Below are positions 651 through 63,447 of a DNA stretch of 64,000 nt, one piece after another; within the stretch, counting starts at the first letter, position 1; the number at the start of each line of letters is the position of its first letter. The position numbers were made by a program, and so were the translations under genes. The notes beneath the pieces were generated by a model, which had not been told where the DNA came from, did no database searches, and saw nothing but the letters and a program-made list of their open reading frames with translations. Source of the stretch: Nannocystis bainbridge (GTDB lineage Bacteria > Myxococcota_A > Polyangia > Nannocystales > Nannocystaceae); assembly GCF_028368995.1 (NCBI RefSeq), contig NZ_JAQNDL010000001.1, positions 960,001 through 1,024,000 of the forward strand, read 5' to 3'.

Positions 651-673
651 TGACATGTCCCGAAAGACATGTG
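651..673. repeat. 14-bp palindromic unit TGTCC-N4-GGACA
   Basis: GACATGTCCCGAAAGACATGTG, CATG cores at 654 and 668. Confidence 0.7.
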
Positions 674-685
674 AACTCGCCTTCG

Positions 686-1831
686 TCAGGCCGCCCGCGC
701 GACCGGGGGCAGCAGGCCCGGCACGATCAGCGCCGCGTCGCCGAACTCGTGGGCCAGGTAGCCGGCCCCGATCGCGTGCTCGAACGCGGCCCGCAGCGCG
801 GCCTCGCCGGCGAACGCCTGCAGCAGGGCGAAGTGACTCTCGCCCGGCCCGTGCATCCCGGTGACGATGCCGTCGACCACGCGCGGGACGAAACCTGGCC
901 CGAGGACCAGGTCGGTCTCGCCGCTGCCGGCCTGCAGCCCGCCGAAGCGGCGCACGCTGCCCTCGAGCGCGCGCACCACCGTGGTCCCGACGGCGATCAC
1001 CCGCCCGCCGCCGGCGCGGACGCGAGCGATCGCGGCGACGGTGGCCGCCGGCACCTCGAAGCGCTCGGCCAGGGGCAGCGCCGCGTCGAGCTCGGGGTCG
1101 CCGGTCGACGACAGCCCGGCCGCGTGGGTCACCGCTGCGATCTCGACGCCCGCGCGGCGCAGCGCCAGCAGCGTGTCCCAGTCGAGCGGCCGGCCCGCCG
1201 ACGGCATCTCCGCCGCCCACGGCCGCGCCGCGAACACCGTCTGCACCGACCACAGCGCCAGCGGCTCGCGCACGTGGGCGTACTGGACCGGTCGACCCAG
1301 GCGGTACAGCGCGGCCCACAGCGCCGCGCCTTCGCGGTCGAAGCGGAGCTCGCACAGCCGCGGCGACACCGGCGACACGCCCACGACCGCGGCCGTCAGC
1401 GCCTCGCTGAACACCAGCCGATCGCCGACCCGCAGCGCAGGCGGCGGCGGGCGCCGCTCGGTCGGCGTGCGCCAGTCGCCGGCCCCGAGCAGCGCGGCCC
1501 GCCAGGTCGCCCCGCCGACGCCCGTCAAGCGCACCTCGAGGTCCGCCGACAACATGTCCTCCGAGACATGTCGTTTTGGCCACCCGCGAGAGCCCGCGCC
1601 GTCGTCGAGTTCCGCATTTGACATGTCCCCGGAGACATGTTCTTTTCGCCAGGCGCGGGCGCGCAGCGACGCCGGCAGCGTCGCCGCGTCGTTGACGATC
1701 AGCAGGTCGCCGGCCCCGAGCCAGCGCGGCAGGTCGCGCACGCGGGCGTCGACATGGGCGCCCGTGCGCGGGTCGAGCAGCAGCAGCCGGGCCCCGGCCC
1801 GGTCGTCGCGGGGAGCGGTCGCGGGGTTCAT
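686..1831 (-). CDS. queA: QueA-like S-adenosylmethionine:tRNA ribosyltransferase-isomerase family protein
   Basis: C-terminal part of ORF 686..2623 from MNPATAPRDD; motifs RLLLLD, GDLLIVNDAATLPA, QTVFA, AEMPSAGRP, VIAVGTTVVRALE, TGMH, HEFGDA; start overlaps the SDR stop. Confidence 0.8.
   Translation of the reverse strand: MNPATAPRDDRAGARLLLLDPRTGAHVDARVRDLPRWLGAGDLLIVNDAATLPASLRARAWRKEHVSGDMSNAELDDGAGSRGWPKRHVSEDMLSADLEVRLTGVGGATWRAALLGAGDWRTPTERRPPPPALRVGDRLVFSEALTAAVVGVSPVSPRLCELRFDREGAALWAALYRLGRPVQYAHVREPLALWSVQTVFAARPWAAEMPSAGRPLDWDTLLALRRAGVEIAAVTHAAGLSSTGDPELDAALPLAERFEVPAATVAAIARVRAGGGRVIAVGTTVVRALEGSVRRFGGLQAGSGETDLVLGPGFVPRVVDGIVTGMHGPGESHFALLQAFAGEAALRAAFEHAIGAGYLAHEFGDAALIVPGLLPPVARAA
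1550..1655. repeat. Two 14-bp-period palindrome triplets in frame within queA
   Basis: Cores at 1553/1567/1581 and 1622/1636/1650; encodes WRKEHVSGDMSNAELDDGAGSRGWPKRHVSEDML. Confidence 0.75.
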
Positions 1832-2568
1832 CGCCCGCCTCCTTGCCAGCCCTCGGCGCGCACGCGGTCGCCCGAGCCGACCGCGGCGTCCTTCACGATC
1901 GCCGCGATCGCCCGCGCGACCGCGGCCGGGTCGGCCAGGCTGGCGCGATCGGCCTCGGGGACCGCATCGGCATGCATCTGCGTGTCCATCTCGCCCGGGT
2001 CGACCGCCAGCACGCGCACGCCGGTGCCCGCGAGCTCGGCCGCCCAGGTCCGGCTCAGGTGATCGAGCGCCGCCTTGCTCGCCCCGTACGCGCCCCAGCG
2101 CGGGTAGGCCTCGACCGCCGCGTCCGACGACACGTGCACGATCGTGCCGCGTCCGCGCAGCGCCATCGCCCCGGCGATCGCCTTGCTCAGGCGGAACGGC
2201 CCGAGCAGGTTGACCTGCAGCGCGCGCTCGAATTCCTCGCACTCGGTGTCGAGCAGCAGCCGCAGCGGCGTCGGCCCGAGCGTGCTGGCGTTGTGGATCA
2301 GCAGATCGACGGGCCCGAGCAGCGCCGCCGCCTGGTGGGCGATCGGGTGGATCGCCCGCTTGTCGCCGACATCGCCGACGATCGCCTCGGCGACGACGCC
2401 GTCCGCCCGCAGCCCGGCGACCGCGGCCGTCAGCGCCGCCGCGTCGCGGGCCACCATCGCCACCCGGGCGCCCCGCCGGCCGAGTTCGCGCGCGAGGGCC
2501 AGGCCGAGGCCGCGGCTCGCCCCGGTGACGAGCGCCGCGGTGCCTGCAAAATCGAGGTTCATGGTCAT
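1828..2568 (-). CDS. SDR family oxidoreductase
   Basis: TGASRGLG, HNAS, YGASK motifs. Confidence 0.9.
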   Translation of the reverse strand: MTMNLDFAGTAALVTGASRGLGLALARELGRRGARVAMVARDAAALTAAVAGLRADGVVAEAIVGDVGDKRAIHPIAHQAAALLGPVDLLIHNASTLGPTPLRLLLDTECEEFERALQVNLLGPFRLSKAIAGAMALRGRGTIVHVSSDAAVEAYPRWGAYGASKAALDHLSRTWAAELAGTGVRVLAVDPGEMDTQMHADAVPEADRASLADPAAVARAIAAIVKDAAVGSGDRVRAEGWQGGGR

Positions 2569-2689
2569 GAGAACAGCTCCTTTGGGTTGTCCTCAGCCTG
2601 GCGTCGCCCGGACGATTTACCAACCCGGCTGCTATTTCCTTGTCACGAGGTTATTGCGCCGACCGGGCCGACCCGGTCACAGTCGCGGC

Positions 2690-4532: not shown

Positions 4533-4535
4533 TCG

Positions 4536-5442: not shown

Positions 5443-5880
5443 GTGGGTCGTTACCGCGTGACTACCGAGGCCGATGTCGTCGGTGCCCGCGTGGCCGCCG
5501 AACGGCTCGCGCTGCAGGAGGGGTTCCCGCGGCTGGCGGCGCAGGAGGTCGCGCTCGTCACCTCGGAGCTGGCGTGGAACCTGGTGCGCCACGCAGGCGG
5601 CGGTGAGATCGATCTGGCGATGACGAACGGCCCGCACGGCCCGGCGATCGTCGTCGCCGCGATCGACGGCAGCCCGCCGATCGCCGACCTCGAGACCGCG
5701 ATGCTCGACGGCCACACCGCGAACGGGCCCATCCCGCCGGAGGAGCGGATGCGCCGGCGCGGCCTCGGCAGCGGCCTCGGAGCGGCGCTCCGCCTCAGCG
5801 ACCGCCTGGTCCAGGAGGCCTTGCCCCGGGGCAAACGCATCGTCGCCACCCGCTACCTGGTGCGCCCGGGCCGGCTGTGA
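5443..5880 (+). CDS. rsbT: RsbT-like anti-sigma Ser/Thr kinase (HATPase_c)
   Basis: EADVVGAR, VTSELAWNLVRHAGGG, IADLETAMLDG, GLGSGL; GTG start after GAGG (start inferred). Confidence 0.75.
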   Translation: MGRYRVTTEADVVGARVAAERLALQEGFPRLAAQEVALVTSELAWNLVRHAGGGEIDLAMTNGPHGPAIVVAAIDGSPPIADLETAMLDGHTANGPIPPEERMRRRGLGSGLGAALRLSDRLVQEALPRGKRIVATRYLVRPGRL

Positions 5881-5956
5881 GACATGTCCAAAGGGTCATG
5901 TCCTCGAGGACATGACCTCATCGACATGCCCTTCAGAGCATGTCCTGAAGTACACG
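5881..5956. repeat. 14-bp-period palindrome array (6 cores) at a convergent junction
   Basis: CATG at 5883, 5897, 5911, 5925, 5939; CACG at 5953. Confidence 0.85.
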
Positions 5957-11865: not shown

Positions 11866-13521
11866 ATGTCCCGCCGCCTCGTCGACCTCGCCCGCGATCT
11901 CGGCATCGACCCCGAGAACCGCGCCTACGTCCCCTATGGCCACGACTTCGCCAAGATCGACACCGTCGCCGCCGGCGAGGGCTCGGCGCACGGCAACCTC
12001 GTGGTCGTCTCCGCCGTCACCCCGACGCCGCTCGGCGAGGGCAAGACCGTCACCTCGATCTCGCTCGGCATGGGCCTGTCGCGGATCGGCGAGCCCGCGC
12101 TCGCGTGCCTGCGTCAGCCCTCGCTCGGCCCGGTGTTCGGGGCCAAGGGCGGCGGCGCCGGCGGCGGCAAGGCGCAGGTCGTGCCCGCCGATCGCATCAA
12201 CCTCGGCGGCACCGGCGACGGCCAGGCCGTCGGCGCCGCGCACAACCTGCTCGCCGCCATGCTCGACGCGCATCTGCGCCACGGCAACCCGCTCAAGGTC
12301 GACCCGGCACGCATCGCCTTCTCGCGGGTCACTCCCGTCAACGACGGCAGCCTGCGCAAGGTCATCACCGGCCTGGGCGGCCCGCTCAACGGCGTCCCGC
12401 GCGAGTCCTTCTTCGAGATCAACGAGGCCAGCGAGGTCATGGCGATCCTCGCCCTCGCCCGCGATCGCGGCGACCTCCGCAAGCGCCTCGGCAACATCGT
12501 CCTCGGGCCCGACCAGGGCGGCGCGCCGGTGCGGGCCGAGCAGCTCGGCGCGGCCGGGGCCATGAGCGTGCTCCTGCGCGACGCCCTCTACCCCACCCTC
12601 GCGCGCACCAGCGAGGGCACGCCCGTGCTGCTGCACGCCGGCCCGTTCGCCAACATCGCCCACGGCAACAGCAGCCTGATCGCCACCCGCTGGGCCCTCA
12701 CGCGCTCGCCATGGGTCGTCACCGAGTGCGGCTTCGGCAGCGACCTCGGACTCGAGAAGTTCGTCCACATCAAAGCCCGCCTCGGCAACCTGCGGCCCGC
12801 CTGCGTCGTCGTCGTCTGCACCGTGCGCGCGCTCAAGGTCCACGCCGGCCTGGCCAAGGCCGTGCTCGGCAAGCCGCTCGACCAGGCCGTGCTCACCGAG
12901 GACGTGAGCGCCGTCGAGAAGGGCGCCGCCAACCTGCGGCATCACCTGCGGATCGCCACCAATTTCGGCCCGCCGGTGGTCGTCGCGCTCAACCGCTTCC
13001 CGACCGACACGGACGCCGAGATCGCGGTCGTCGAGGGCATCGCCCGCGAGTTCGGGGCCGGCTTCGCCGTGCACACCGGCTTCGCCGACGGCGGCGCCGG
13101 GGCCGAGGATCTGGCGCGCGCCGTCGTCAAGGCCGCCCGCCCCACCGACCTGCGCTACCAGTACGAAGGCACAGGTCCGCTCGCCGCCCGGCTCGAGAGC
13201 CTGGCCAAAAACGTCTACGGCGCCACCGGCATCGAGCTGGCCCCCGCCGCCCGCACGCGCCTGGCCCAGCTCGAGAAGTGGGGCCTCGGCGAGCTGCAGC
13301 TGTGCGTCGCCAAGACCCACCTCGCCACCACCCACGACCCGGCCGACGGCGGCCTGCCGAAGCCGTTCGTCCTGCCGGTGCGCGACATCCTGGTCCGCGC
13401 CGGCGCCGGCTTCGCCACCGTGCTGACCGGCGAGCTCACCACCTTGCCGGCCCTGGGCGCCCGCCCCAACGCCGTCGACATGGACCTCGACCCCGCCACC
13501 GGCGCCGCCATCGGACTCTAG
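11866..13521 (+). CDS. fhs: Formate--tetrahydrofolate ligase
   Basis: TPTPLGEGKT, LRQPSLGPVFGAKGG, HAGPFANIAHG, TECGFGSDLGLEKF, AGAGF. Confidence 0.92.
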   Translation: MSRRLVDLARDLGIDPENRAYVPYGHDFAKIDTVAAGEGSAHGNLVVVSAVTPTPLGEGKTVTSISLGMGLSRIGEPALACLRQPSLGPVFGAKGGGAGGGKAQVVPADRINLGGTGDGQAVGAAHNLLAAMLDAHLRHGNPLKVDPARIAFSRVTPVNDGSLRKVITGLGGPLNGVPRESFFEINEASEVMAILALARDRGDLRKRLGNIVLGPDQGGAPVRAEQLGAAGAMSVLLRDALYPTLARTSEGTPVLLHAGPFANIAHGNSSLIATRWALTRSPWVVTECGFGSDLGLEKFVHIKARLGNLRPACVVVVCTVRALKVHAGLAKAVLGKPLDQAVLTEDVSAVEKGAANLRHHLRIATNFGPPVVVALNRFPTDTDAEIAVVEGIAREFGAGFAVHTGFADGGAGAEDLARAVVKAARPTDLRYQYEGTGPLAARLESLAKNVYGATGIELAPAARTRLAQLEKWGLGELQLCVAKTHLATTHDPADGGLPKPFVLPVRDILVRAGAGFATVLTGELTTLPALGARPNAVDMDLDPATGAAIGL

Positions 13522-13598
13522 ACCTGTCCCTAAGGGCATGCTCTCCAGGGCATGCCCTCAGCGCCATGTTCGCGGGGACATGTCCCCGCGGACAGGCG
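13520..13598. repeat. 14-bp-period palindrome array (6 cores) at a convergent junction
   Basis: Cores at 13523, 13537, 13551, 13565, 13579, 13593. Confidence 0.85.
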
Positions 13599-21489: not shown

Positions 21490-21570
21490 TCATATGCCCT
21501 CGAAGACATGTTTGATGGGAAATGTCCTCAAGAACATTTTCCATGAGACATGTCTTTAAATACATATCTC
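21490..21570. repeat. AT-rich 14-bp-period palindrome array (6 cores)
   Basis: TATG 21493, CATG 21507, AATG 21521, CATT 21535, CATG 21549, CATA 21563. Confidence 0.75.
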
Positions 21571-21792
21571 CCGCATAGCCCGACCCGGCCCCTCCGCGGC
21601 GACGAGATCTGGCCTCCGCGTCCCCCGGGCGATCGCCGACAGCGACTGCGCCCGTAGCCCCTCGGAGAGCCCTGCCCTGGCAGACGCGCGGCCTCTCGGT
21701 GCTCCGTCGCCTCCACGCCCCTCGCCGCCAGCCTTGACGGCGGGCCGGCGTTCGCGCTGTCATGACGGCCTTCGCCTGTCCGGAGGTCGCGC

Positions 21793-22926: not shown

Positions 22927-22932
22927 CCGAAG

Positions 22933-22985
22933 GGACACGTCCTCTCGGACATGGCCATGCGGCCATGTCCTCTCGGACATGTCCC
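22933..22985. repeat. 14-bp-period palindrome array at a convergent junction
   Basis: Cores at 22936, 22950, 22964, 22978; TGTCCTCTCGGACA. Confidence 0.85.
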
Positions 22986-22986
22986 A

Positions 22987-24899: not shown

Positions 24900-25760
24900 T
24901 CACGGCTCGGCGCAGCCCAGGCGCACCCGCTCGGCCAGCGCCGACCCGCCGTGCGCGCGCAGGAACACCTGCGCCGCCGCCCGGCCCTCCGCCGCGCGAT
25001 CGCCCGCGCACAGCGCCAGCGCCCGCAGGGCGTCGTGCTCCTCACGCAGCGCCCCGCGCGGGAACTGCTGCGCGTATGCATGCAGCAGCGTCAGCGCCTC
25101 CGCGGCCCGCGAGCCCTGGATCGCCGCCTGCGCTCGCCCCAGCAGCTCCGCCTCCTGCGCCAGCGAGCTCGCCTCCACCGCGCTCGCCTCGCTCTCCGCC
25201 GCGCTCGCCTCATGCGAGCCCGTCGGCGAGCTCCGCCGCTCCGATGCGCGCGCCTCGCCGCTGCCGCGACCGACTCGCAGCGAATGATCTGTCCCCTTGA
25301 ACATGTCCCTCACGACATGCTCTCTGGCGCTATCATCATCCCTCGACGAAGTCGCGCTCGGTTGTTCCTCACGGTTCTCTGTCTCTCGGACCATGTCCCC
25401 CGAGACAGGCTCGCTCGCGCCCGCCCGCACCGGCTCGCTCGTCGCCGCCTGCCGCTCCGCGTACGCCGCCGCCTCGCCGCCCTGGCGGGACCCGACCAGC
25501 GGCCCCAGCACCCCTGCGCGCGAGGCCAGTAGCACCGCCGCCGCTGCCGCGACCACCACCCCGGCCCACACCCATTCCGACACGCCCCTTCGGACCTGCC
25601 CTTTCGGCCATGTCCCTTCGGCCCGGGTGCTCGCCGCCACGCGGGCCCACACCCGCGCCTCGGTCGCGGCCGGCAGCTCCTCCGCGACGCGGAACGCCCG
25701 CAACGCCGCTGCTGCCTGCGGATCGAGCTCCCCCTCGCGCCCCCGTGGTCCCGTCGTCAT
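24900..25760 (-). CDS. Putative anti-sigma factor (single TM, C-terminal TPR-like helices)
   Basis: Coupled to ECF sigma; TM WVWAGVVVAAAAAVLLA; LAQEAELLGRAQAA...FPRGALREE...ALC. Confidence 0.7.
   Translation of the reverse strand: MTTGPRGREGELDPQAAAALRAFRVAEELPAATEARVWARVAASTRAEGTWPKGQVRRGVSEWVWAGVVVAAAAAVLLASRAGVLGPLVGSRQGGEAAAYAERQAATSEPVRAGASEPVSGDMVRETENREEQPSATSSRDDDSAREHVVRDMFKGTDHSLRVGRGSGEARASERRSSPTGSHEASAAESEASAVEASSLAQEAELLGRAQAAIQGSRAAEALTLLHAYAQQFPRGALREEHDALRALALCAGDRAAEGRAAAQVFLRAHGGSALAERVRLGCAEP
25285..25620. repeat. Three 14-bp-period triplets inside the anti-sigma CDS
   Basis: Cores at 25288/25302/25316, 25378/25392/25406, 25581/25595/25609. Confidence 0.7.
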
Positions 25761-27828: not shown

Positions 27829-27834
27829 CTCAAA

Positions 27835-27900
27835 GAGTATGTCCATTCGGACATGTTCTTCACAACATGTCGATGAAGCTATGTCTCCAAGGACATAGAA
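27835..27900. repeat. 14-bp-period palindrome array at a convergent junction
   Basis: Cores at 27838, 27852, 27866, 27880, 27894. Confidence 0.8.
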
Positions 27901-28112: not shown

Positions 28113-29189
28113 CTACCGCAGCCGCACTTCCATGCCCGCCAGCACCTGCCCGCCGAGGCGCGCCGCCTCGTGCACCCTCACCCCACCGGCCGTCACGAAG
28201 CTCGGCCGCAGCAGCGCCACGACCGCGTCGGCGCCGGCCCACAGCCCCACGCGCCCGCGCGGGTGCCACACCACGGACGCCCCGAGCGTCGCTGCCAGCC
28301 ACGGCGAGCGCTCCGAGGTCGTCGTCATCAGCCCGCTGCCGCGGCCGCGGCCCTCCATCGCCCCGACCTGCAGCCCCAGACACAGCGGCACCGCCACCTG
28401 CCCGCGGCGCAGCACCGGGCACCCGCGCAGCTCGACCGCCCCCGCCTGAAACAGCCCCCCGATCGCCGCCGTCCCGCCCGCCACTGGCGGCGCGTAAAGC
28501 CCGCCGAGCTCCGCCCGCCAGCGCCGGCCGCCCACGCTCAGCGCCAGGCTCAGCGCCGCGCTCGGCCCGGGTAGCAGCCGCGCGAAGCTCACCCCCGCCG
28601 CCACCCGCACCCCGACCTGCACGCGCCGCCCGGGCCCTGCCGCCGGCTCCGCAATATCCGGCGCCACGGCCACCGGCGCCTCCATCTCGTCCGATACCGG
28701 CGGCTCACTTGGCCCTTCGGACATGTCCTTCACGACCGGTCCTTTCGGACCTTCCCTATGCGACATGTCCTCCACGACCTGTCCATTCGGGCCTGCCCCT
28801 TGCGCCACGTCGACCGGCGGCGCCGGGACCACGGTCTCGCCCGTCGCCGGGGCCGCCAGCGCCGCGCGTGGATCGACCGCGATCGCCACCACCAGCGCGG
28901 CAGCGTCGACCAGCTCCTCGCAGCGCGGCGCCGTCAGCTCGCGGCGACCGCCGCCGCTCGTCCCTGTCAGCTCGAGCGTCAGCGCCCAGCGGCCCGGGCT
29001 CGCCTCGCGGACCGTCGCCCGGGCCGTCAGGTTGGCCCGCTCGGCGGCCTCCTGCCCCGTCATCCGCACCACCCGCGCCCGCACCTCGGCCTCGCCCGGG
29101 CAGCCCTCCGGGGCCGTCCACGCCAGCACCAGCCCCGGGGGCGGCTCGGCGGCAGCGACGATCGTCGCCGCCATCAGCACGGCGAGCAT
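28113..29189 (-). CDS. Secreted/outer-membrane protein (WxAPxGCP N-domain, Pro linker, beta-strand-rich C-terminus)
   Basis: Signal peptide, WTAPEGCP, RELTAPRCEELVDAAALVVAIAVDP, amphipathic beta strands ending GMEVRLR. Confidence 0.65.
   Translation of the reverse strand: MLAVLMAATIVAAAEPPPGLVLAWTAPEGCPGEAEVRARVVRMTGQEAAERANLTARATVREASPGRWALTLELTGTSGGGRRELTAPRCEELVDAAALVVAIAVDPRAALAAPATGETVVPAPPVDVAQGAGPNGQVVEDMSHREGPKGPVVKDMSEGPSEPPVSDEMEAPVAVAPDIAEPAAGPGRRVQVGVRVAAGVSFARLLPGPSAALSLALSVGGRRWRAELGGLYAPPVAGGTAAIGGLFQAGAVELRGCPVLRRGQVAVPLCLGLQVGAMEGRGRGSGLMTTTSERSPWLAATLGASVVWHPRGRVGLWAGADAVVALLRPSFVTAGGVRVHEAARLGGQVLAGMEVRLR
28705..28812. repeat. Eight-core 14-bp-period array in frame within a CDS linker
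   Basis: Cores at 28708, 28722, 28736, 28750, 28764, 28778, 28792, 28806; peptide QGAGPNGQVVEDMSHREGPKGPVVKDMSEGPS. Confidence 0.75.
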
Positions 29190-46009: not shown

Positions 46010-46013
46010 CCGC

Positions 46014-49168: not shown

Positions 49169-51169
49169 ATGCTTCGCACCTCGCCCGTCCGTCCCGTCGC
49201 CCCGTCCTACTTCGTCCTCCCCCAGCGCGCCCGCCTCGCGCGCTTGCTGCCCGCCGCGGTGGCCCTCCTGGGCGCGCTCCTCCCCGCCTGCGCCCCCGAG
49301 CCGACCATCGACGAGATCGTCAGCGACGGCGGCTACGCCAACAACCGCTTCCTCCGCGCGATCGCCAAGCCCGACGCGATCGAAGAGGAAGCCCCGCCCC
49401 AGGACCTCGAGAACAGCGGCGACGAGGCCGCCGGCACCGGCCAGCGGCACAAGGGCGAGGAGGGCAAGATGGGCAGGCCCACCTCGAAGAACAAGTCGGG
49501 CCTCTACGCGATGAAGGGCCCGAAGGACGCGATCCCGCAGATGGACGCCTGGGGCGGCCTGACGGGCACCGAGATCGGTGAAGCGTACGGCGTCGGCGGC
49601 CTCGGCCTGGTCGGCACCGGCCGCGGCGGCGGCGGCACCGGCGAGGGCACGATCGGCAGCGCCTACGCCGTCGGCAAAGACGACGACGCCGTGTGGGGCG
49701 GCCTCGTCGCCCACGACACCGCCGGCGCTCCGGGCGGCGATCGCTACGCGAAGGTGCAAGAGGCCGCGTGGACGCTGACCCACGCCGCGCCGCTTTCGAC
49801 CTTCTCGATCGACGTCGACACCGCCAGCTACAGCAACGTCCGCCGGTTCCTGAGCGACAACTACTTGCCGCCGCCCGACGCGGTCCGTGTCGAGGAGATG
49901 ATCAACTACTTCGACTACGCCTACCCCGCGCCCGACGGCGATCATCCGCTCGGCGTCGGCGCCGAGGTCGCTCCGTGTCCGTGGAAGAAGGGCCACCAGC
50001 TGGTGCGCGTGCACCTGCAGGCCAAGAAGATCGAGACCACCCAGGTGCCCGCGCGCAACCTCGTGTTCCTGGTCGACACCTCGGGCTCGATGAGCGACGA
50101 CGACAAGCTCGGCCTGGTCCGCAAGGGCCTGTCGCTGCTCACCGAGCAGCTGCGTCCCGAAGATCGCATCTCGCTCGTCACCTACGCCGGCGACACCCGC
50201 GTGGTCCTGCCGACCACTTCCGGCAGCGACAAGGCGACGATCTTGCGCGCCATCGATCGCCTCGGCGCCAACGGCGGGACCAACGGCGGCGCCGGCATCG
50301 CCCTCGCCTACGCCGAGGCTCACAAGCACTTCGTGAAGGGCGGCATCAACCGGATCCTGCTCGCCACCGACGGCGACTTCAACCTCGGCCTCACCGATCA
50401 CGACGACCTGATCAAGCTGATCGAGAAGGAGCGGCAGACCGGCGTGTTCCTGACCGTGCTGGGGGTCGGCCGCGGCAACTACAACGACCGGACGATGGAG
50501 CAGATCGCCGACCACGGCAACGGCAACTACGCCTACCTCGACTCCGAGAAGGAGGCGCGCAAGGTCCTGGTCGCCGAGGCGAGCGGCACGCTCGTCACCG
50601 TCGCCAAGGACGTCAAGCTGCAGGTCGAGTGGAACCCCAACCGCGTGGCCGGCTACCGCCTGATCGGCTACGAGAACCGCACCCTGACCGCCGAGCAGTT
50701 CAACGACGACAAGAAGGACGCCGGCGAGCTCGGCGCGGGCGACAGCGTCACCGCGCTGTACGAGGTCGTGCCCGCCGGCCGTCCGGTGCCCGGGGTCGCG
50801 GTCGACAACCTCAAGTACCAGCGCCCCGCCGGCCCCGCCGACGCCGAGCTGCTGACGATCAAGGTCCGCTACAAGCAGCCCGAGGGCGACAAGAGCACCA
50901 AGTTCGAGTCCCCCGTCCAGGACGCCCGCACCGAGTGGGCCGAGGCCTCGCCGCAGCTGCGCCTCGCCGCCGCCGTCGCCGCCTTCGGCCTCAAGCTGCG
51001 CGGCTCGCCGAGCCTCGACAACTTCGACCTCGCCGCCGCCCGCGCCTGGGCCCACTCGGCCGAGCTGCCCGACCCCGAGGGTCACCGCCGCGAGTTCGTC
51101 GCGCTGGTCGACAAGGCCCGCCAGCTGATGGACCGCGAGACCGTGCACAGCCGCAGCGCCCTGCCCTGA
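49169..51169 (+). CDS. YfbK-like VWA domain lipoprotein (vWF_A, VWA, DUF3520)
   Basis: PLSTFSIDVDTASY, VRVEEMINYF, FLVDTSGSM MIDAS, ATDGDFN, YRLIGYENR, DAGELGAG. Confidence 0.88.
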   Translation: MLRTSPVRPVAPSYFVLPQRARLARLLPAAVALLGALLPACAPEPTIDEIVSDGGYANNRFLRAIAKPDAIEEEAPPQDLENSGDEAAGTGQRHKGEEGKMGRPTSKNKSGLYAMKGPKDAIPQMDAWGGLTGTEIGEAYGVGGLGLVGTGRGGGGTGEGTIGSAYAVGKDDDAVWGGLVAHDTAGAPGGDRYAKVQEAAWTLTHAAPLSTFSIDVDTASYSNVRRFLSDNYLPPPDAVRVEEMINYFDYAYPAPDGDHPLGVGAEVAPCPWKKGHQLVRVHLQAKKIETTQVPARNLVFLVDTSGSMSDDDKLGLVRKGLSLLTEQLRPEDRISLVTYAGDTRVVLPTTSGSDKATILRAIDRLGANGGTNGGAGIALAYAEAHKHFVKGGINRILLATDGDFNLGLTDHDDLIKLIEKERQTGVFLTVLGVGRGNYNDRTMEQIADHGNGNYAYLDSEKEARKVLVAEASGTLVTVAKDVKLQVEWNPNRVAGYRLIGYENRTLTAEQFNDDKKDAGELGAGDSVTALYEVVPAGRPVPGVAVDNLKYQRPAGPADAELLTIKVRYKQPEGDKSTKFESPVQDARTEWAEASPQLRLAAAVAAFGLKLRGSPSLDNFDLAAARAWAHSAELPDPEGHRREFVALVDKARQLMDRETVHSRSALP

Positions 51170-51170
51170 A

Positions 51171-51223
51171 GGACATGCCGCCAGAGACATGAGCCTCGGG
51201 ACAGGCCCTTCGGGGCATGTCCC
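51171..51223. repeat. 14-bp-period palindrome array at a convergent junction
   Basis: Cores at 51174, 51188, 51202, 51216. Confidence 0.8.
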
Positions 51224-51232
51224 GAGGTTCAG

Positions 51233-52348
<1,116 letters not shown>

Positions 52349-54876: not shown

Positions 54877-54888
54877 ACGCGCTCTCGG

Positions 54889-54955
54889 GGACATGTCCCC
54901 GTGGACATGTCCCTGTGGACATGCCCCGGTGGGCATGTCCGAAGAAACATCTCCT
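54889..54955. repeat. Best-conserved 14-bp tandem palindrome array, at a convergent junction
   Basis: GGACA TGTCCCCGTGGACA TGTCCCTGTGGACA TGCCCCGGTGGGCA TGTCCGAAGAAACA; cores 54892-54948. Confidence 0.9.
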
Positions 54956-54965
54956 CGAACCGCCG

Positions 54966-56566: not shown

Positions 56567-56672
56567 GATGTCTCGTCACGCATGTCCCGCTCGCCATACG
56601 CCCTCGATCCGCCCAGGCCGCGACATGTCCATTCGGACATGTCCTGATCGCCATGCGCCCCGCGAGCCATGC
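56555..56672. repeat. 14-bp-period palindrome array in a divergent promoter region
   Basis: Cores at 56567/56581/56595 and 56624/56638/56652. Confidence 0.7.
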
Positions 56673-56831: not shown

Positions 56832-59045
56832 ATGCCGGCCGTCCGAGTCCACGACGCCTCGCCCGACGACGACCTGTTCGCCTACCTCGCGCGCACCGGC
56901 GGCGACGACGTTCGCCGGGCCCAGCTGATCGGCGCTGCCAACGCCTTCAAGGAGGGTGACGCCGCGCTCGGCCTCGCCGCGGCCGACATGTCCTCGCGGA
57001 CAGCCGCGCGCCGGCTCCTCGCCGCCACCGCCGTCGGCCGGCTCGCCGCCGCCCCGCTGTTCCGCGACGGGCTCCACGACGCCCTCGCCGCCGCCCTCGA
57101 CCCACGCGCCGCGGCCCACGTCTCGACCTGGTCTTTGGGCCAGCTCAAGACCTTCGTGCTGACCGCCGACGAGGCCGAGGTCAACCAGCTGCTGCCCGGC
57201 CTCGCCAGCGACGTCGTCGCCTGCCTGGTCAAGATCATGAGCGACGCCGAGCTCGTCGCTCTCGGCGCGCGGCTGTTCCACCCGCTGCCCGGCAGCCGGC
57301 TCGGCGCGCGCGGCTACCTCGGCGCACGGATCCAGCCCAACAGCCCGACCGACCACCCCGACGACATCCGCTGGCAAGTGCTGGCCGGCTGGTCCTACGC
57401 CGTCGGCGACGTCGTGCTCGGCACCAACCCCGTGTCGTCCGACCCGCGCTCGGTGGCCGCGGTCGAGGCTGTCCTTTGGGACATCCTGGTCGATTTCGGC
57501 CTGCAGGACACCCTGCCCCACTGCGTGCTCGCCCACATCGAGGTCCAGGCCGCGGTCGAGCGCGCCGCCCCCGGCACCACCGGGATCTGGTTCCAGAGCA
57601 TCGCCGGCTCCGACGCCGCCAACGCCACCTTCGGCCTCGACCTCGAGGGTCTGCGCCGCCACGCTCGCGGCCGCACCGGTCGCTGGGGCCTGTACTTCGA
57701 GACAGGTCAGGGCGCCGACTTCACCAACGGCCACGGCCGCGGCGTCGACATGGTCGTCCACGAGGCCCGCAAGTACGGCCTCGCCCGCCTGCTGCGGGCC
57801 GACGTCGCCGACGCTCGCCGCCGCCTCGGCCTCTACCCGGAGCCGTGGGTCCACGTCAACGACGTCGCCGGCTTCATCGGCCCCGAGGTGTTCCGCACCC
57901 GCGACCAGCTGGTGCGCTGCTGCCTCGAGGACATCGCCATGGCCAAGCTGCACGGCCTGATGATCGGCCTCGACGTGTGCGCCACCCTGCACATGGACAT
58001 CGGCCTCGACGACCTCGACTGGTGCCTCGAGCGGATCGCCCCGGCCTGCCCGGGCTACCTCATGGCCCTGCCGACCAAGAGCGACCCGATGCTCGGCTAC
58101 CTCACCACCGCCTTTCAGGACCACGTGCGCCTGCGCGAGCGGTTCGGCACCCGCGTCGACGATCGCATGTGGGAGTTCTTCCGCGACCGCCTCGGCGTCG
58201 TCGATGCGCGCGGCCGGCCGACCGCGCGCTTCGGCGATCCGGTGTGGGTCCACCTCCAGCTGTGCCGCGCCCGCGGCGACGTCCGCCCGGACGACGTCAT
58301 CGCCGGCGAGGGTCGGGCCGCGCTCGCGGCCGTGCGCGCCCGCGGCGTGGCGATCGGCGAGGGCCACGGCGACCGCCCCTGGGACCTCCCGCCTGCCCTC
58401 GACGCCGAAGTCCGCGGCCTCTGCGACGACGCCAAGCACAGCCTGCGCGCCGAGTGGCGCGCCGAGTTCGTCAGCAAGATCCCCGGCGCCCGGCGCCTCG
58501 CCACCTGCGCCGGCGACCGCGACGAATACATCCTCCACCCGCCCACCGGCGAGGCGCTGAGCCCCGCCGCGCTCACCGAATTACATGTCCTTAAGGACAG
58601 CTACGCCGGCCGCTTCGACACCGTCCTGGTCGTGTCCGACGGCCTCAACGCCCGCGCGCTGATGGACGACGAGCACCTGTTCCCGTTCCTCGATGTCCTG
58701 GTCCCCGAGCTGCGCGCCGCCGGCTTCGCGCCCGCGCCCGACGTGTTCGTGCTCGCCGGCGGCCGCGTCCGCGCCGGCTACGCCCTCGGCGCGGCCCTGT
58801 TCGCCGATCTGCCCGGCCCGCGGCGCCTCGTCCACGTCATCGGCGAGCGCCCCGGCACCATGCACCACGCCTTCTCCGTCTACCTCAGCGCCGCCGACGG
58901 CCTGGCCTGGGCCCGGCCGCGCGGCGTCGACCACCACCTCACCCGCGTGATCTCCGGCGTCGCCGACACCGCCTATCTACCGGCCCGGGCCGCGCGCGAG
59001 GCCGTCGCCATCCTCCAGGACATGCCCTCGAGGACATGCCCCTGA
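56832..59045 (+). CDS. eutB: Ethanolamine ammonia-lyase, EutB-EutC fusion
   Basis: ANAFKEGD, RIQPNSPTD, GTNPV, CVLAH, FQSIAG, YFETGQG, GFIGPE, CLED (EutB); then YILHP..GE.L, VSDGL, GRV, IGERPG (EutC). Confidence 0.85.
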   Translation: MPAVRVHDASPDDDLFAYLARTGGDDVRRAQLIGAANAFKEGDAALGLAAADMSSRTAARRLLAATAVGRLAAAPLFRDGLHDALAAALDPRAAAHVSTWSLGQLKTFVLTADEAEVNQLLPGLASDVVACLVKIMSDAELVALGARLFHPLPGSRLGARGYLGARIQPNSPTDHPDDIRWQVLAGWSYAVGDVVLGTNPVSSDPRSVAAVEAVLWDILVDFGLQDTLPHCVLAHIEVQAAVERAAPGTTGIWFQSIAGSDAANATFGLDLEGLRRHARGRTGRWGLYFETGQGADFTNGHGRGVDMVVHEARKYGLARLLRADVADARRRLGLYPEPWVHVNDVAGFIGPEVFRTRDQLVRCCLEDIAMAKLHGLMIGLDVCATLHMDIGLDDLDWCLERIAPACPGYLMALPTKSDPMLGYLTTAFQDHVRLRERFGTRVDDRMWEFFRDRLGVVDARGRPTARFGDPVWVHLQLCRARGDVRPDDVIAGEGRAALAAVRARGVAIGEGHGDRPWDLPPALDAEVRGLCDDAKHSLRAEWRAEFVSKIPGARRLATCAGDRDEYILHPPTGEALSPAALTELHVLKDSYAGRFDTVLVVSDGLNARALMDDEHLFPFLDVLVPELRAAGFAPAPDVFVLAGGRVRAGYALGAALFADLPGPRRLVHVIGERPGTMHHAFSVYLSAADGLAWARPRGVDHHLTRVISGVADTAYLPARAAREAVAILQDMPSRTCP

Positions 59046-59082
59046 GACCATGCCCCCGGGGACATGTCCCCCGGGCCATCAC
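59018..59082. repeat. 14-bp-period palindrome array overlapping the eutBC stop, at a convergent junction
   Basis: Cores at 59021, 59035, 59049, 59063, 59077. Confidence 0.85.
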
Positions 59083-59462: not shown

Positions 59463-59472
59463 ACAACCTCCG

Positions 59473-59865: not shown

Positions 59866-59917
59866 CCCGCCGAGGCTAGCGGACCGCCGGGCGGCCGACA
59901 ACGCTCGCCCACGCGCG

Positions 59918-59952
59918 CTACATGTCCTTCAAAACATGTCCTGCGGACATCC
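59918..59952. repeat. 14-bp palindromic units
   Basis: ACATGTCCTTCAAAACATGTCCTGCGGACAT. Confidence 0.7.
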
Positions 59953-60017
59953 ATTCGCGGCGCCTGCCCGCGACGCCGCGGCCTACGCTGTTCAACGCCG
60001 GTTCGCGCGGGACCGGC

Positions 60018-61265: not shown

Positions 61266-61343
61266 GCGACCTCAGCCTAGCGCGCCCGCGCCCCTGCGTC
61301 ACGGCGCGCGAACGCGCGCATCGGCGCCTTCGCCGCCGCAATT

Positions 61344-61507
61344 CTGCATGACCTTACGGACATGCTCCAATCGCCATGCCTCGATGGACATGACCTCAAG
61401 GGCATGTCCGGGCGACCATGTTCGCCCGCCACGGATCAGCTCGGCTCGCCGTCGAGCCCTGATACTGGTGACATGCTCCCGAGGACATGGCCGATCGGCC
61501 ATGTCCC
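61344..61507. repeat. 14-bp-period palindrome arrays (6 plus 3 cores) upstream of dinB
   Basis: CATG at 61347, 61361, 61375, 61389, 61403, 61417, then 61472, 61486, 61500. Confidence 0.88.
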
Positions 61508-61524
61508 GGGCGCCGCCGAACGGC

Positions 61525-62487
61525 TCAGTCCGGCTTCGGCTCGACCTCGAGCTCCGGCAGCCCCTCGAGCTTGCGCTCGTCGCAGCTGCCCGACGGCGGC
61601 GGCGCGGGCACCAGCACCCGCAGGCTGCGGGGCACGCACTCAACGGTCACGGGCGTCTCGCCGACGTCTTCGCCGTCGACGAGCACCGGCTGCGGTGGGT
61701 CGGCGCGGATCGTCACGCGCTTGACCGGCAGGTAGCCGATGTCGTCGCGCGTCGCGGCGTTCTGGCTGAGCCCGGAGCGGTACAGGTGCAGCGCCGTGCC
61801 GATGCCGGACACCAGGCCGTCGAATGCGACCAGCGTGACGTCGAGCTGGCCGTCGTCGCCGCACACCGCCGTCGGCCCCTGCGCGAACAGGGTGTGCAGC
61901 GGCGCGAGGTTGGCCACCGCCACGTTGGTGAGCTTGCAGCGGATGACCTCGCTCTCCGTCTCGAGCTCGACCGCGAACGGCTCGAGCTCGGAGATCCGCT
62001 GCAGACCGGTGGCGATGTACGCCAGCAGGCCCCAGCGGTTCTTGGCCTCGCGCGTGGTCTCGCCGATCGCCGCGGCGTGGAAGCCCACCGAGGCGAACAG
62101 CAGCACCGCACGGCCCGCCGCGCGGGCGGTGTCGATCGCGTGCGGCTGACCCTTGCAGGCGTTCTCGAGCGCGCCCTCGAGGTCGAGCGGGATCGCCAGC
62201 GCGCGGGCGAAGCTGTTGGCAGTACCGCGCGGCAGCACGGCCAGCGGAATTTCGCCGCCGATCAGCCGCGACGCCACCAGCGAGACCGTACCGTCGCCGC
62301 CGGCCGCGATCACGACGCTCGGCTCGCTGGCCAGCGCCGCCGCGGCGCAGGCGTCCGCGTCGCGCTCGGGGCTGGTCTCGAACACCGTGAGCTCGTACGT
62401 CTGCTCCAGCGCGGCGACGACCTCGGGCAGCTCGTCGCGGGCCACGCCAGACACGGGATTCCACACCAGGGCGGCGCGCGGCTTCAC
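61525..62487 (-). CDS. YegS/DAGK family lipid kinase
   Basis: NPVSG, AGGDGT, PRGTANSFAR, DDGQLD, VDGE. Confidence 0.9.
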   Translation of the reverse strand: MKPRAALVWNPVSGVARDELPEVVAALEQTYELTVFETSPERDADACAAAALASEPSVVIAAGGDGTVSLVASRLIGGEIPLAVLPRGTANSFARALAIPLDLEGALENACKGQPHAIDTARAAGRAVLLFASVGFHAAAIGETTREAKNRWGLLAYIATGLQRISELEPFAVELETESEVIRCKLTNVAVANLAPLHTLFAQGPTAVCGDDGQLDVTLVAFDGLVSGIGTALHLYRSGLSQNAATRDDIGYLPVKRVTIRADPPQPVLVDGEDVGETPVTVECVPRSLRVLVPAPPPSGSCDERKLEGLPELEVEPKPD

Positions 62488-62629
62488 GAACTCCTCCCGC
62501 GCGCGACGACACGAGCGTCCTGCGCACGCCGCTCGCCCGGTGAATCATGGAGGTCGAGGCGAGGGAGCACGGGCCGCGTCGTCCGCGGCGTAGCGGTGTT
62601 CATCCCCGGAGTGTGCCACGCTTCCCCGC

Positions 62630-63253
62630 GTGAGCGGCGACCTCGACATCGACGCGCTCCTGGCCGAACACGGGCTGCGTAGCGGCGAAGCGCGCGAACT
62701 GGGCCGCGCCGCGCTCGAGGGCGCCGGGCTCACCCGCCCCGGCAAGCGCAACCTGGCCGCCGGCAAACGCCCGCGGGTCGAGGAGGTCATCGCCGCCCAG
62801 TTCGTCCGCACATGCGCGCGACCTCACTGTCGCGAGGCCGCCGCGGGCGACGGCCGGATCGTCGTCGACCTCGACGCGCCCGCGGCCCGCCTGTGCGAGT
62901 TCTGCGGCGGCTCGACCAACCGCAGCGCGTGGGAGCGAGCCCTCGTCGCCATGGCCCGGCGCGACTGGCATCGCCTCGTCGTCGTCGGCGGCTCGCCCCC
63001 GCTCCACCACGAGCTGCGGGCGCTCGTCGGCGGCCGCATCGATCTCCGGCTCGTCGACGGCACCGCCCGCCGCACCGCCCACGACGCCGCGCACGACCTC
63101 GCCTGGGCCGATCGCATCGTCGTCTGGGGCGCCACCCTGCTCGACCACAAGGTCTCGCAGCTCTACACCGATCGCCGCTCGCCCAAGGTCGTCACCGTCG
63201 CCAAGCGCGGGCTCACGGCGCTGGCCGAGACGATCATCAAGACCGCCGAGTGA
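62630..63253 (+). CDS. Hypothetical protein with putative Zn ribbon and DUF2325-like domain
   Basis: C-X4-C...CEFC; LVVVGG...ADRIVVW...LDHK. Confidence 0.6.
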   Translation: MSGDLDIDALLAEHGLRSGEARELGRAALEGAGLTRPGKRNLAAGKRPRVEEVIAAQFVRTCARPHCREAAAGDGRIVVDLDAPAARLCEFCGGSTNRSAWERALVAMARRDWHRLVVVGGSPPLHHELRALVGGRIDLRLVDGTARRTAHDAAHDLAWADRIVVWGATLLDHKVSQLYTDRRSPKVVTVAKRGLTALAETIIKTAE

Positions 63254-63369
63254 GCCGGCCCGGCGTGGGCCCGCACTTGTTGCCCCATACAGAGCCCGGA
63301 CCGCTCAGGTCGACGAAGCGCCCCTCCGATGTCGCACGCCCTCGGCGTGATGGGCCGTCCCGAGCGGCA

Positions 63370-63447
63370 CGGCATGACCATCACGACATGTCCGAAAGAA
63401 CATGCTCATTCGAACATCATCTTTATGACATGTTCGTGCGGCCAGCG
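63370..63447. repeat. 14-bp-period palindrome array at a convergent junction
   Basis: Cores at 63373, 63387, 63401, 63415, 63429, 63443. Confidence 0.85.

Follow-up and report, generated by a model that had tools for sequence, protein, structure and literature searches.

Phased palindromic arrays at the 3' ends of genes form a genus-restricted repeat family in Nannocystis

A window of 64,000 nucleotides from Nannocystis bainbridge (contig NZ_JAQNDL010000001.1, positions 960,001 to 1,024,000) carries a palindrome whose CATG centres recur every 14 bp, which raises the question of what this element is and what it could do for the cell. An initial annotation of the window had proposed a pervasive and undescribed family of phased sites for a DNA-binding protein. 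The family is indeed present far beyond chance, and no description of it was found in the literature searched. Our preferred reading, held with moderate confidence, is that the arrays are a REP-like hairpin element of gene 3' ends that terminates transcription in both directions and/or stabilises mRNA, and that is read by a sequence-specific partner.

Unit anatomy and periodicity

Motif analysis of the Nannocystis genome resolved the repeat unit into a self-complementary 10-mer core, GGRCATGYCC, and a 4-nt AT-richer spacer, the units being joined head-to-tail with a period of exactly 14 bp. Within the window, 33 CATG-CATG pairs were found at a distance of 14, 19 at 28 and 15 at 42, with 0-2 pairs at each neighbouring distance. 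The pattern CATG-N10-CATG-N10-CATG matched 17 times, compared with 0 matches in 100 dinucleotide shuffles. Across the genome (11.05 Mb, 5 contigs), 3,736 pairs were counted at 14, 2,073 at 28, 1,586 at 42 and 751 at 56, while distances of 13 (72 pairs) and 15 (262 pairs) stayed at background. The autocorrelation peaks that had been predicted at 14, 28 and 42 were therefore found in window and genome, together with a further one at 56.

Arrays of at least two units number 3,005 and make up 1.17% of the genome (8,898 units, about 0.8 units/kb). Chains of 2, 3, 4, 5, 6, 7 and 8 units occur 1709, 487, 331, 258, 169, 36 and 10 times, with 5 longer ones. Arrays of 3 to 6 units occur at roughly similar frequencies, odd unit counts are as common as even ones, and numbers drop steeply beyond 6 units (84 bp). 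A three-unit (42 bp) module had also been suggested, however no preference for multiples of three was seen among the genome array sizes. On contig C3 (2.0 Mb), 338 two-unit and 309 longer chains were found, compared with 22 and 0 in an order-3 Markov copy of this contig, making two-unit chains about 15 times commoner than in the null.

Conservation within the unit is uneven. In unbiased middle units CATG reaches 93-95% identity, versus 50-75% for the remaining core positions. Terminal units retain the full palindrome, even though their outer half lacks a partner to pair with, and the longest arrays have kept nothing but CATG and the period. The spacer had been thought to vary freely; instead, it is AT-enriched despite a genome GC content of 71.5% and rich in TTC/GAA words (most often CTTC/GAAG, TTCG/CGAA and GAAA/TTTC), and no strand orientation relative to the gene was seen. 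Spacers of one array are nearly unrelated (identity 0.31, expected 0.27), which argues against recent slippage as their source. We agree with the earlier judgement that the element is neither a CRISPR nor a minisatellite of identical units.

Much of this anatomy would suit the idea put forward initially, namely that a Nannocystis-specific protein binds each palindromic core on double-stranded DNA and polymerises along the 14-bp register. Such a protein might terminate transcription at gene ends by forming a roadblock, set a supercoil or topological barrier there or organise the nucleoid, and the RNA hairpins would be a by-product. It would account for spacing that is as rigid in linkers as in loops, for the excess conservation of CATG, for whole palindromes in terminal units, for AT-rich spacers that lack orientation, for the persistence of CATG and period in the longest arrays and for the drop past 84 bp. 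It would not account for the absence of a preference for three-unit multiples, and no candidate protein was found. The spacer-centred dyad ATGTCC-N4-GGACAT corresponds to ATGT-N8-ACAT, and PadR is the only family whose canonical operator, given as ATGT-N8-10-ACAT in the available text of PMC3506622, fits it; however, a search that matched 14 of 14 control genomes gave no PadR match in this genome. As an account of the arrays we consider protein binding to double-stranded DNA less likely but a serious rival, and it can coexist with the hairpin reading.

The exact 10-mer occurs 956 times in the genome, where about 17 copies are expected, and 215 of these are solitary, 130 of them inside predicted ORFs. 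Together with the unit density and the genus-specific motif, these figures could fit a self-recognition tag (DNA-uptake sequence) or a CATG methylation/restriction motif for which placement in terminators is secondary, as in the DUS pairs of Neisseria, which are frequently located there. This is very improbable, since 67% of the exact cores have a neighbour at exactly 14 bp, many "solitary" cores are flanked by decayed neighbour units, and neither the phased tandem layout nor the co-variation across spacers reported below is needed by such a tag.

Arrays in the window and their placement relative to genes

A PWM scan of the window returned 26 chains of at least two units, 14 of which have at least three. 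The seven clusters cited initially are all present at their given positions; the overall number had been put at about 20. Convergent gaps are filled by 5 units at 13518..13587, between a formate-tetrahydrofolate ligase gene (11848-13521, +) and ORF 13602-14651 (-), by 4 units at 22931..22986, between ORF 22165-22926 (+) and a short-chain dehydrogenase gene (22987-24063, -), and by 4 units at 51169..51224, between a VWA/YfbK-like gene (49001-51169, +) and an adenosine deaminase gene (51233-52258, -). The first unit at 13518 contains the TAG stop, and this array is in register with that of genome G010. The array at 51169 is 84% identical to its G010 ortholog, and ortholog lengths are 56 nt in G005, G007 and G010, 58 in G001 and 72 in G003. 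Four units at 59016..59071 overlap the last ~10 codons and the TGA of an EutB-EutC fusion gene (56832-59045, +) that is convergent with ORF 59079-59462 (-); this array also measures 56 nt in G005 and G007.

Some further arrays follow stop codons closely. Five units at 5878..5947 start at a TGA, with an array at the same place in G010, and 3 units at 27833..27874 begin 5 nt past the stop of ORF 26305-27828 (+). Downstream of a diacylglycerol-kinase-like gene (61525-62487, -) lie 3 units at 61467..61508, 17 nt past the stop, and 6 units at 61342..61425. The former are out of phase with the adjoining array and absent at this site in G010; the latter are present there with unit gain or loss. An AT-richer array of 5 units (63368..63437) comes after ORF 62630-63253 (+). 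The best-preserved array in the window, 5 units at 54887..54956, has a G010 counterpart in register, and 3 units at 25576..25617 have one of equal length and register (76% identity). Three units at 56619..56660 are located between ORF 55766-56566 (-) and the ethanolamine ammonia-lyase gene. An AT-rich degenerate array of 5 units (21502..21571) occupies a divergent intergenic region, an atypical context; the G010 gap is ~1.5 kb longer here and gives no usable ortholog alignment. Two-unit arrays are found at 649..676, 1548-1575, 1617-1644, 4663-4690, 25297-25324, 46012-46060 and 59916-59943, and two-unit chains inside ORFs at 2555, 34955, 47053 and 53777 may be chance.

Genome-wide placement was assessed with a GC3-based ORF filter (6,500 ORFs, 77% of the genome), whose calls are crude and whose start codons are unreliable. 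Array starts cluster about -5 to +20 nt from the stop codon, the median gap to the first unit being 26 nt. At least two units are present in 53% of the intergenic regions between convergent genes, in 22-23% of those between tandem genes and in 15% of those between divergent genes, on a background of 1,144 convergent versus 1,043 divergent regions. The 1,296 arrays of at least three units comprise 512 convergent, 417 tandem and 56 divergent cases and 310 that overlap a predicted ORF. Such an array stands at the 3' end of 1,001 of the 6,500 ORFs, compared with 206 at the 5' end. Among the tandem arrays, 304 of 417 leave at least 100 nt before the next predicted start, and in tandem regions of at least 300 nt, 103 of 276 lie in the first tenth after the stop. 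This placement after stops and in convergent gaps had been missed by the initial annotation and speaks against double-stranded DNA binding as the full explanation.

Some arrays lie within genes. About 6 units at 28716..28800 are in frame inside ORF 28113-29189 (-), where they are read in three alternating frames and translated as a linker containing ...DMS... twice, 14 residues apart. In G010 and G005 this ORF carries the insert as well and is full length (358-359 aa); no Pfam family match was found for it. In addition to this verified case, about 119-149 arrays were placed inside coding sequence; a terminator would be harmful there, which argues against a terminator role. In-frame, translated copies are also described for Rickettsia palindromic elements and intragenic REPs in the available text of PMC3733652. 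They would be consistent with selfish or neutral palindromic DNA that spreads by hairpins or slippage and survives past stops, where it is least harmful, without a function for the cell. However, where tandem genes are far apart, the arrays stay close to the stop and do not spread over the tolerated space.

Pairing, co-variation and conservation

Because the unit consists of a self-complementary 10-mer and 4 nt, any two neighbouring cores could form a 10-bp stem closed by a tetraloop. Seven window stretches, one of them on both strands, were folded and compared with 200 shuffles each. The 8 predicted folds ranged from -28.5 to -56.3 kcal/mol (z -1.76 to -7.14), and 6 of them had no equally stable shuffle. 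The array at 13518 folds whichever strand is used (z -7.14 and -5.34), that at 22931 as a nested hairpin with a compensating GGCC/GGCC centre pair (z -6.25) and that at 54887 as two 10-13-bp hairpins (-46.9 kcal/mol, z -4.76). RNA of the array at 5878 gave -37.6 kcal/mol (z -4.46), the 6 units at 61342 gave z -3.51, and the fold at 59016 is weak (z -1.76).

Where a base departs from the consensus, the core on the other side of the spacer tends to carry its complement (pooled OR 1.66); the ratio exceeds 1 in 22 of 24 strata, and slid controls gave 0.90 and 0.93. The within-core dyad, which a dimer on DNA would read, is in contrast anti-correlated (OR 0.80; ratio above 1 in 4 of 24 strata). The co-variation is modest in size, about +0.2 paired bases out of 10, and could originate by inverted duplication. 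Successive units share bases slightly more often than expected (OR 1.30), as selfish spread would predict.

A strand signal was also detected. Sense-strand mismatches amount to 1,193 G.U versus 940 A.C when unstratified, a comparison confounded by strong replication skew. Among the G.U and A.C stem mismatches scored on the leading strand, G.U makes up a fraction of 0.72 where the sense strand is leading (188 arrays) and 0.596 where it is lagging (229), a replication-stratified difference (Fisher OR 1.74, p 1.7e-9); spacers and 40-nt flanks showed no comparable sense effect. The folding energy of leading- minus lagging-strand RNA is -5.94 kcal/mol for sense-leading versus -3.09 kcal/mol for sense-lagging arrays (p 2e-4), the unstratified comparison of sense and antisense folding being not significant (p 0.12). 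Both effects speak against a protein on double-stranded DNA, and the wobble effect left after stratification could reflect a transcription-linked mutation bias confined to stems. Placement at stops and in convergent gaps, co-variation across the spacer and the sense-strand bias in wobble and stability together suggest that the arrays are transcribed into hairpins at 3' ends. No U-tract was found downstream of the arrays (13.6% T over 40 nt), and canonical intrinsic termination is therefore not expected.

A motif scan of related genomes, as the initial annotation had recommended, was positive in 11 of 11 same-genus genomes and in 0 of 400 other Myxococcota. In 10 orthologous arrays of G000 and G010, identity was 0.89 for CATG, 0.62 for core flanks and 0.43 for spacers, compared with 0.58 for other intergenic sequence, and 26 gaps fell in array columns versus 114 in other intergenic columns. 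Retention of CATG while spacers fall below other intergenic sequence indicates purifying selection on specific positions, not decay; the contrast between CATG and core flanks would also suit a DNA-binding protein. Array lengths differ between species by whole units, and both unit gain or loss and array presence or absence vary. Such variation, along with genus restriction and high copy number, fits selfish DNA. We nevertheless regard that origin as improbable, since orthologous arrays keep their place, register and CATG, within-array spacers are nearly unrelated, and the genome yielded neither a RAYT/Y1 transposase nor GTAG or CGTC tags.

Proposed role and comparison with known systems

The arrays are most likely a genus-specific non-coding family marking the 3' ends of transcription units, the Nannocystis counterpart of REP/BIME palindromes. 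When transcribed from either strand, an array of 2-6 units would form a stack or nest of hairpins. Lying within ~20 nt of the stop and often filling convergent gaps, these suggest two roles: they could reduce read-through from either side in spite of having no U-tract, probably with the help of a factor, and block 3'-exonucleases, stabilising the upstream mRNA. Pairing alone leaves unexplained the 4-nt linkers that are as rigid as loops, the genome-wide fixation of CATG and the equal frequency of odd and even unit numbers. As the rigid 14-bp register and the CATG conservation exceed the needs of pairing, we infer that the units are recognised by a sequence-specific partner, a protein that acts either on DNA or on the RNA duplex. 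The arrays most likely mark transcript ends and protect them, a mode for which no earlier description in this group was found.

In the 3' UTRs of E. coli, REPs are reported to terminate transcription partially and to stabilise the mRNA (bioRxiv 10.64898/2026.03.23.713779, available part), a role that was proposed for these elements and has been shown for REP325 (PMC3733652; bioRxiv 10.64898/2026.03.23.713779, available parts). As far as these sources go, the REP/BIME elements of Enterobacteria and Pseudomonas resemble the arrays in being short GC-rich palindromes in hundreds to thousands of copies, located in 3' UTRs and between convergent genes, often reiterated and forming RNA hairpins, which here are predicted. 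The Nannocystis unit is shorter, 14 bp versus 20-40 bp, and two units give a hairpin of 24 nt. Its 10-mer cores are perfectly self-complementary, follow one another head-to-tail in strict phase and have a centre tetramer conserved far more than the stem ends; unlike REPs, they come without the GTAG/CGTC tag and the transposase.

The U-less ("I-shaped") or tandem hairpin terminators of high-GC bacteria are likewise stable GC-rich hairpins after stops, without a T-run and sometimes several in tandem; however, they evolved individually, whereas Nannocystis uses one genus-specific consensus unit with one fixed period genome-wide. The met-boxes bound by MetJ are 8-bp palindromes, 2-5 of them in tandem, at a handful of promoters. 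They share the head-to-tail palindromes and rigid spacing of the arrays (2-6 units), which imply cooperative binding of dimers. In contrast to met-boxes, the ~3,000 Nannocystis arrays are at gene 3' ends and co-vary like hairpins. PadR operators resemble the spacer-centred dyad, yet the copy number and placement of the arrays are unlike those of a regulator's operator. Finally, the in-frame units at 28716-28800 recall Rickettsia palindromic elements, but while those are single insertions of about 100-150 bp, the Nannocystis insert is a run of 14-bp units in three alternating frames.

Anatomy, abundance and distribution of the arrays

According to the initial annotation, CATG-like cores recur in the window at exact 14-bp spacing. 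The cited clusters proved to be real and the phasing was confirmed: CATG-CATG distances in the window number 33 at 14 bp, 19 at 28 bp and 15 at 42 bp, with 0-2 at the neighboring distances, and the pattern CATG-N10-CATG-N10-CATG occurs 17 times versus 0 in 100 shuffles. The anticipated peaks were also found throughout the source genome (11.05 Mb, 71.5% GC, 5 contigs), in which the window spans C1:960001-1024000: 3,736 CATG pairs lie at 14 bp, 2,073 at 28 bp, 1,586 at 42 bp and 751 at 56 bp, with background levels at both 13 bp (72 pairs) and 15 bp (262 pairs). The array unit consists of the core GGRCATGYCC and four bases that are far AT-richer than the genome. These four central bases had been thought to vary freely, a view that did not hold, as the spacers are AT-rich and words with TTC/GAA top the list.

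A PWM chain scan of the genome yielded 3,005 arrays of at least two units, which comprise 8,898 units and cover 1.17% of the genome; at least three units are present in 1,296 of these arrays. In a 2-Mb contig copied by an order-3 Markov model, the scan returned 22 two-unit chains and none longer. Sizes of three to six units are about equally frequent and numbers fall steeply beyond; the three-unit (42-bp) module proposed earlier found no counterpart, since array sizes reveal no preference for three units. Arrays occur on all contigs, and no confinement to one region was seen. The longest array (18-20 units) lies on contig C3 (1237910-1238190; positions 3400-3700 of the extracted region L106), flanked by a small ORF whose end is at L106 3388 and by a PLP-dependent enzyme gene. 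Along this array the sequence turns gradually AT-rich, until only CATG and the 14-bp register are still recognizable. Its neighbors (a GTPase, the small ORF, the PLP-dependent enzyme and an ORF without family) gave no DNA-binding gene as a lead. In another genome of the genus, G007, the intergenic region that corresponds by orthology to window 59916-59943 (L020) has grown to ~450 nt through a higher-order tandem repeat with copies of ~57-80 nt, each holding a two-unit array and a GC-rich segment, the final three being identical.

With at most two mismatches, the two-core pattern was detected in all 11 same-genus genomes (7-848 hits per strand; these genomes are kin and their counts non-independent). 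Of the family's 14 other genera a single one had matches (2 hits), and none of 16 genomes from other families did. At most one mismatch gave 200 hits per strand in the source genome and none in 400 other genomes of the phylum covering 254 other genera. A blind tetramer-periodicity scan picks up the signal in 200 kb of the source genome; in the small sample formed by 200 kb of a sister-genus genome (G024) and 41 kb of G013, none of the 256 tetramers gave a periodic peak. Judged by these sequence searches, the array family is specific to Nannocystis, and the arrays may serve as a simple genus marker.

The window also contains other repeats. A tandem repeat of period 102 (24353-24638, 2.9 copies, 78% matches) overlaps a predicted ORF at 24397-24807 (+). 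Coding low-complexity repeats with periods of 9-45, rich in CAC/CGA/ACC, are located at 14408-14485, 22047-22135, 26524-26758, 32325-32689 and 37764-37904, the first being a 15-bp repeat (5.2 copies, 93% matches) within ORF 13602-14651 (-).

Arrays at gene ends

Genes were modeled with a GC3-based ORF filter without annotation (6,500 ORFs, 77% of the genome), a crude model in which stops are exact, starts unreliable and some genes missed. Among the 1,296 arrays of at least three units, 512 are convergent, 232 and 185 tandem and 56 divergent, and 310 overlap a predicted ORF. Background intergenic regions are about equally often convergent (1,144) and divergent (1,043). Arrays of at least two units were found in 53% of the convergent intergenic regions, in 22-23% of the tandem ones and in 15% of the divergent ones. 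Correspondingly, 1,001 of the 6,500 ORFs carry an array of at least three units at the 3' end versus 206 at the 5' end. In this one genus, ~15-23% of predicted genes have their 3' end marked by a single code, a 10-bp palindrome every 14 bp, which is also found at about half of all convergent gene pairs.

The start of the first unit mostly falls between -5 and +20 nt relative to the stop codon (median distance 26 nt). Often the stop codon is situated within the first unit, the TGA being drawn from CATGA, which leads to phase peaks at +4, -10 and -24. In tandem intergenic regions of at least 300 nt, 103 of 276 arrays fall in the first tenth after the stop, and 304 of the 417 tandem arrays are separated from the next predicted start by at least 100 nt. 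Convergent gaps of the window are wholly filled by arrays and flanked by ordinary housekeeping genes, namely formate-tetrahydrofolate ligase and an ORF, an ORF and a short-chain dehydrogenase, a VWA protein and adenosine deaminase, and an EutB-EutC fusion and an ORF. In the fusion, ORF 56832-59045 (+), the large and small subunits of ethanolamine ammonia-lyase (EutB, EutC) are joined, and the last ~10 codons together with the TGA are supplied by the array at 59016-59071. The array at 21502-21571, AT-rich and degenerate with five units, occupies a divergent promoter-side region, a rare context; the orthologous gap in the same-genus genome G010 is ~1.5 kb longer.

Within the in-ORF class of 310 arrays, 149 have a same-frame coding signal on both sides, a count that depends on the crude gene model and includes one ortholog-verified case. 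A unit number that is a multiple of three, as an in-frame rule would have it, was not seen among in-ORF arrays. ORF 28113-29189 (-), a conserved protein of 358 aa without Pfam family, contains ~6 in-frame units at 28716-28800, translated as a linker between its N- and C-terminal parts with ...DMS... repeated 14 residues apart. Both the ORF and its array insert are intact in G010 and in G005, another genome of the genus. Gene callers should be used with caution here, as arrays overlap stops, extend proteins by C-terminal tails and in some cases are situated in frame within genes.

Selection on the arrays and a proposed function

Synteny with G010 extends over the whole window (76-93% identity); coding DNA of the species compared differs by ~10%, and the alignment of their intergenic regions is poor. 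In ten orthologous arrays of this one species pair, identity reached 0.89 (132/148) for CATG, 0.62 (138/224) for the core flanks and 0.43 (64/148) for the spacers, with 0.58 (276/475) for other intergenic DNA. The alignment placed 26 gaps in array columns and 114 in other intergenic columns. The arrays at 51169 and 59016 measure 56 nt in most of five species, differences being whole units. Within the genome, a bias-free comparison of units located between two strong units revealed C, A, T and G of the center at 93-95% each and the other core positions at 50-75%, the complete palindrome being retained in terminal units. On sequence grounds, these data show that the CATG center and the register are under purifying selection, which base pairing alone would not predict. 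Some arrays are species-specific, such as 61467-61508, and clean pairs of empty and filled insertion sites were not found among the species compared. A function-less selfish repeat, the explanation that we rank third, is disfavored by the position-specific conservation.

Since the core is self-complementary, any two neighboring cores can pair as a 10-bp stem around a 4-nt loop. Eight folds, from seven window stretches with one folded on both strands, gave -28.5 to -56.3 kcal/mol (z -1.76 to -7.14), and for six of them none of 200 shuffles was equally stable. Compensated variants are visible in some folds (GGTCATGTCC with GGACATGACC; GGACATGGCC with GGCCATGTCC). Across 5,597 junctions, a non-consensus base tends to be complemented in the neighboring core across the spacer (pooled OR 1.66, 22/24 strata above 1). 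Slid controls gave OR 0.90 and 0.93, the dyad centered on CATG within one core OR 0.80 (4/24 strata above 1), and direct identity of successive units OR 1.30. The gain from cross-spacer co-variation is small in absolute terms, ~0.2 pairs in 10. A preference for even unit numbers, as predicted for paired hairpins, was not seen.

Strand effects were analyzed with regard to the strong GC skew of the genome (about ±0.07-0.1), which biases any strand-asymmetry test. The skew is uniform, at ~-0.07 on contigs C1, C2 and C5 and at ~+0.08 on C4 and the first ~1.5 Mb of C3; the sign flip at this point of C3 is an origin or a terminus. Raw strand tests are confounded by this replication skew and were therefore replaced by stratified tests. 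Dropped in this way were the raw excess of G.U-type over A.C-type mismatches on the upstream gene's sense strand (1,193 vs 940) and the raw sense/antisense folding energies, which were not significant (p 0.12) and whose convergent control was itself skewed. Mismatch asymmetry tracks the leading strand also in convergent (0.61) and divergent (0.64) arrays. On the leading strand, G.U accounted for 0.72 of the G.U plus A.C mismatches in the 188 arrays whose sense strand is leading and for 0.596 in the 229 whose sense strand is lagging (Fisher OR 1.74, p 1.7e-9). In spacers and in 40-nt flanks the replication effect is visible but not the sense effect. Leading-strand RNA was predicted to be the more stable one, by 5.94 kcal/mol for sense leading versus 3.09 kcal/mol for sense lagging (p 2e-4). 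The stratified sense-strand effect is modest evidence that selection may act on the transcript. Among public sequencing runs matched to window 54001-64000, four soil metagenome libraries, probably DNA, shared 7-8% of its words, and no RNA run was listed. Spacers had no strand orientation relative to the upstream gene, and no clear sense-strand tetraloop preference was observed.

Taken together, the placement of the arrays, their hairpin potential, the co-variation across spacers and the sense-strand effect fit a REP-like 3'-UTR element whose transcript would fold into stacked hairpins. REPs of E. coli limit read-through and protect upstream mRNA, as described in bioRxiv 10.64898/2026.03.23.713779; stacked array hairpins may likewise restrict read-through from either side and protect the mRNA upstream of them. 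The rigid register and the fixed CATG center call for more than hairpins. Most economically, they would be explained by a putative partner that reads sequence and phase, recognizing the CATG center and the register on DNA or RNA. Scrambled spacers, rigid register and fixed CATG form an unusually clean selection signature for a non-coding repeat, suggesting a sequence-specific partner worth finding.

The initial annotation had proposed phased sites bound cooperatively by a dimeric protein. As a pure protein-array model, with the partner acting on DNA, this proposal could draw on the same register and CATG center, and we rank it second to the REP-like element, which also fits the co-variation and the sense-strand effect. 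A more specific version appears possible but rather doubtful to us: the arrays would be phased landing pads for a putative Nannocystis-specific protein that reads the CATG-centered palindrome and polymerizes at gene ends in the 14-bp register (~120 degrees per unit), acting as a protein-assisted bidirectional terminator or as a topological barrier that insulates convergent units. If so, bacterial gene ends would be marked by a dedicated DNA code and not by individually evolved hairpins, in a very GC-rich genome largely without U-tract terminators. Transcription-unit ends are poorly understood in very GC-rich bacteria with few such terminators, and operon boundaries matter for the engineering of myxobacteria, which are important natural-product producers. 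The REP-like arrays are a candidate ready-made terminator or insulator part, probably bidirectional, for Nannocystis and perhaps for other myxobacteria.

Comparison with known systems

CRISPR repeats are 24-48 bp long with unique spacers of similar or larger size, whereas the arrays have a 14-bp period, 4-nt spacers and two to six units; period and spacer size rule CRISPR out, as the initial annotation had held. Its distinction from minisatellites of identical units was likewise borne out. Successive spacers agree at 0.31-0.33 per position versus 0.27-0.28 expected and are scrambled between species, so that a slippage minisatellite or VNTR with near-identical units was excluded. DNA uptake sequences (DUS/USS-like), which imply a sequence-specific uptake preference and a cognate receptor, are resembled only in density and genus-specificity.

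At gathering score, the only Rfam 15 match of the window is the tRNA at 44620-44692, with none on arrays, and no description of the element was found in the openly accessible literature covered. To this extent the earlier suggestion of an undescribed element stands. The canonical form of the PadR operator is given in PMC3506622 as the inverted motif ATGT-N8-10-ACAT. The spacer-centered dyad of the array consensus reads ATGT-N8-ACAT. Although the motif fits, a PadR operator was rejected, as the PadR family (PF03551) has no match in the source genome (11 Mb, 90.5% complete), the same search being positive in 14/14 control genomes.

Like canonical intrinsic (Rho-independent) terminators, the arrays place a GC-rich hairpin soon after the stop codon. 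A T-run is absent after tandem-context arrays (T makes up 13.6% of the next 40 nt), and the lack of a U-tract rules out a canonical terminator. A terminator consensus scan of 44001-64000 returned nine terminator-like hits, none on an array. The sole convincing canonical terminator-like hairpin in these 20 kb, at 44576-44610 with a 16-bp stem and a T-rich tail, adjoins the window's only tRNA gene (44620-44692). Thus, U-tract terminators exist in this genome but look rare.

The closest comparison is with REP/BIME elements, from which the initial annotation had set the arrays apart. As defined in PMC3733652, the REP family combines a stem-loop palindrome, a GTAG/CGTC tag and an association with Y1/RAYT. 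REPs carry this tag unpaired at the palindrome end, whereas the arrays are without it: GTAG, CTAC, CGTC or GACG make up 21 of 3,957 spacers, and array-end flanks are no richer in them than control windows. The Y1 transposase (IS200/IS605-like, RAYT; PF01797) had no match in the source genome (90.5% complete), the search being positive in 6/14 control genomes. Membership among RAYT-associated REPs was therefore rejected and in this respect the earlier distinction stands; in placement and hairpin potential the arrays are REP-like, and REP was kept as a functional analogue. Both are high-copy stem-loop palindromes, here with a 10-bp stem and a tetraloop in 8,898 units and 3,005 arrays, and both are extragenic at 3' ends and in convergent gaps (53% convergent versus 15% divergent for the arrays).
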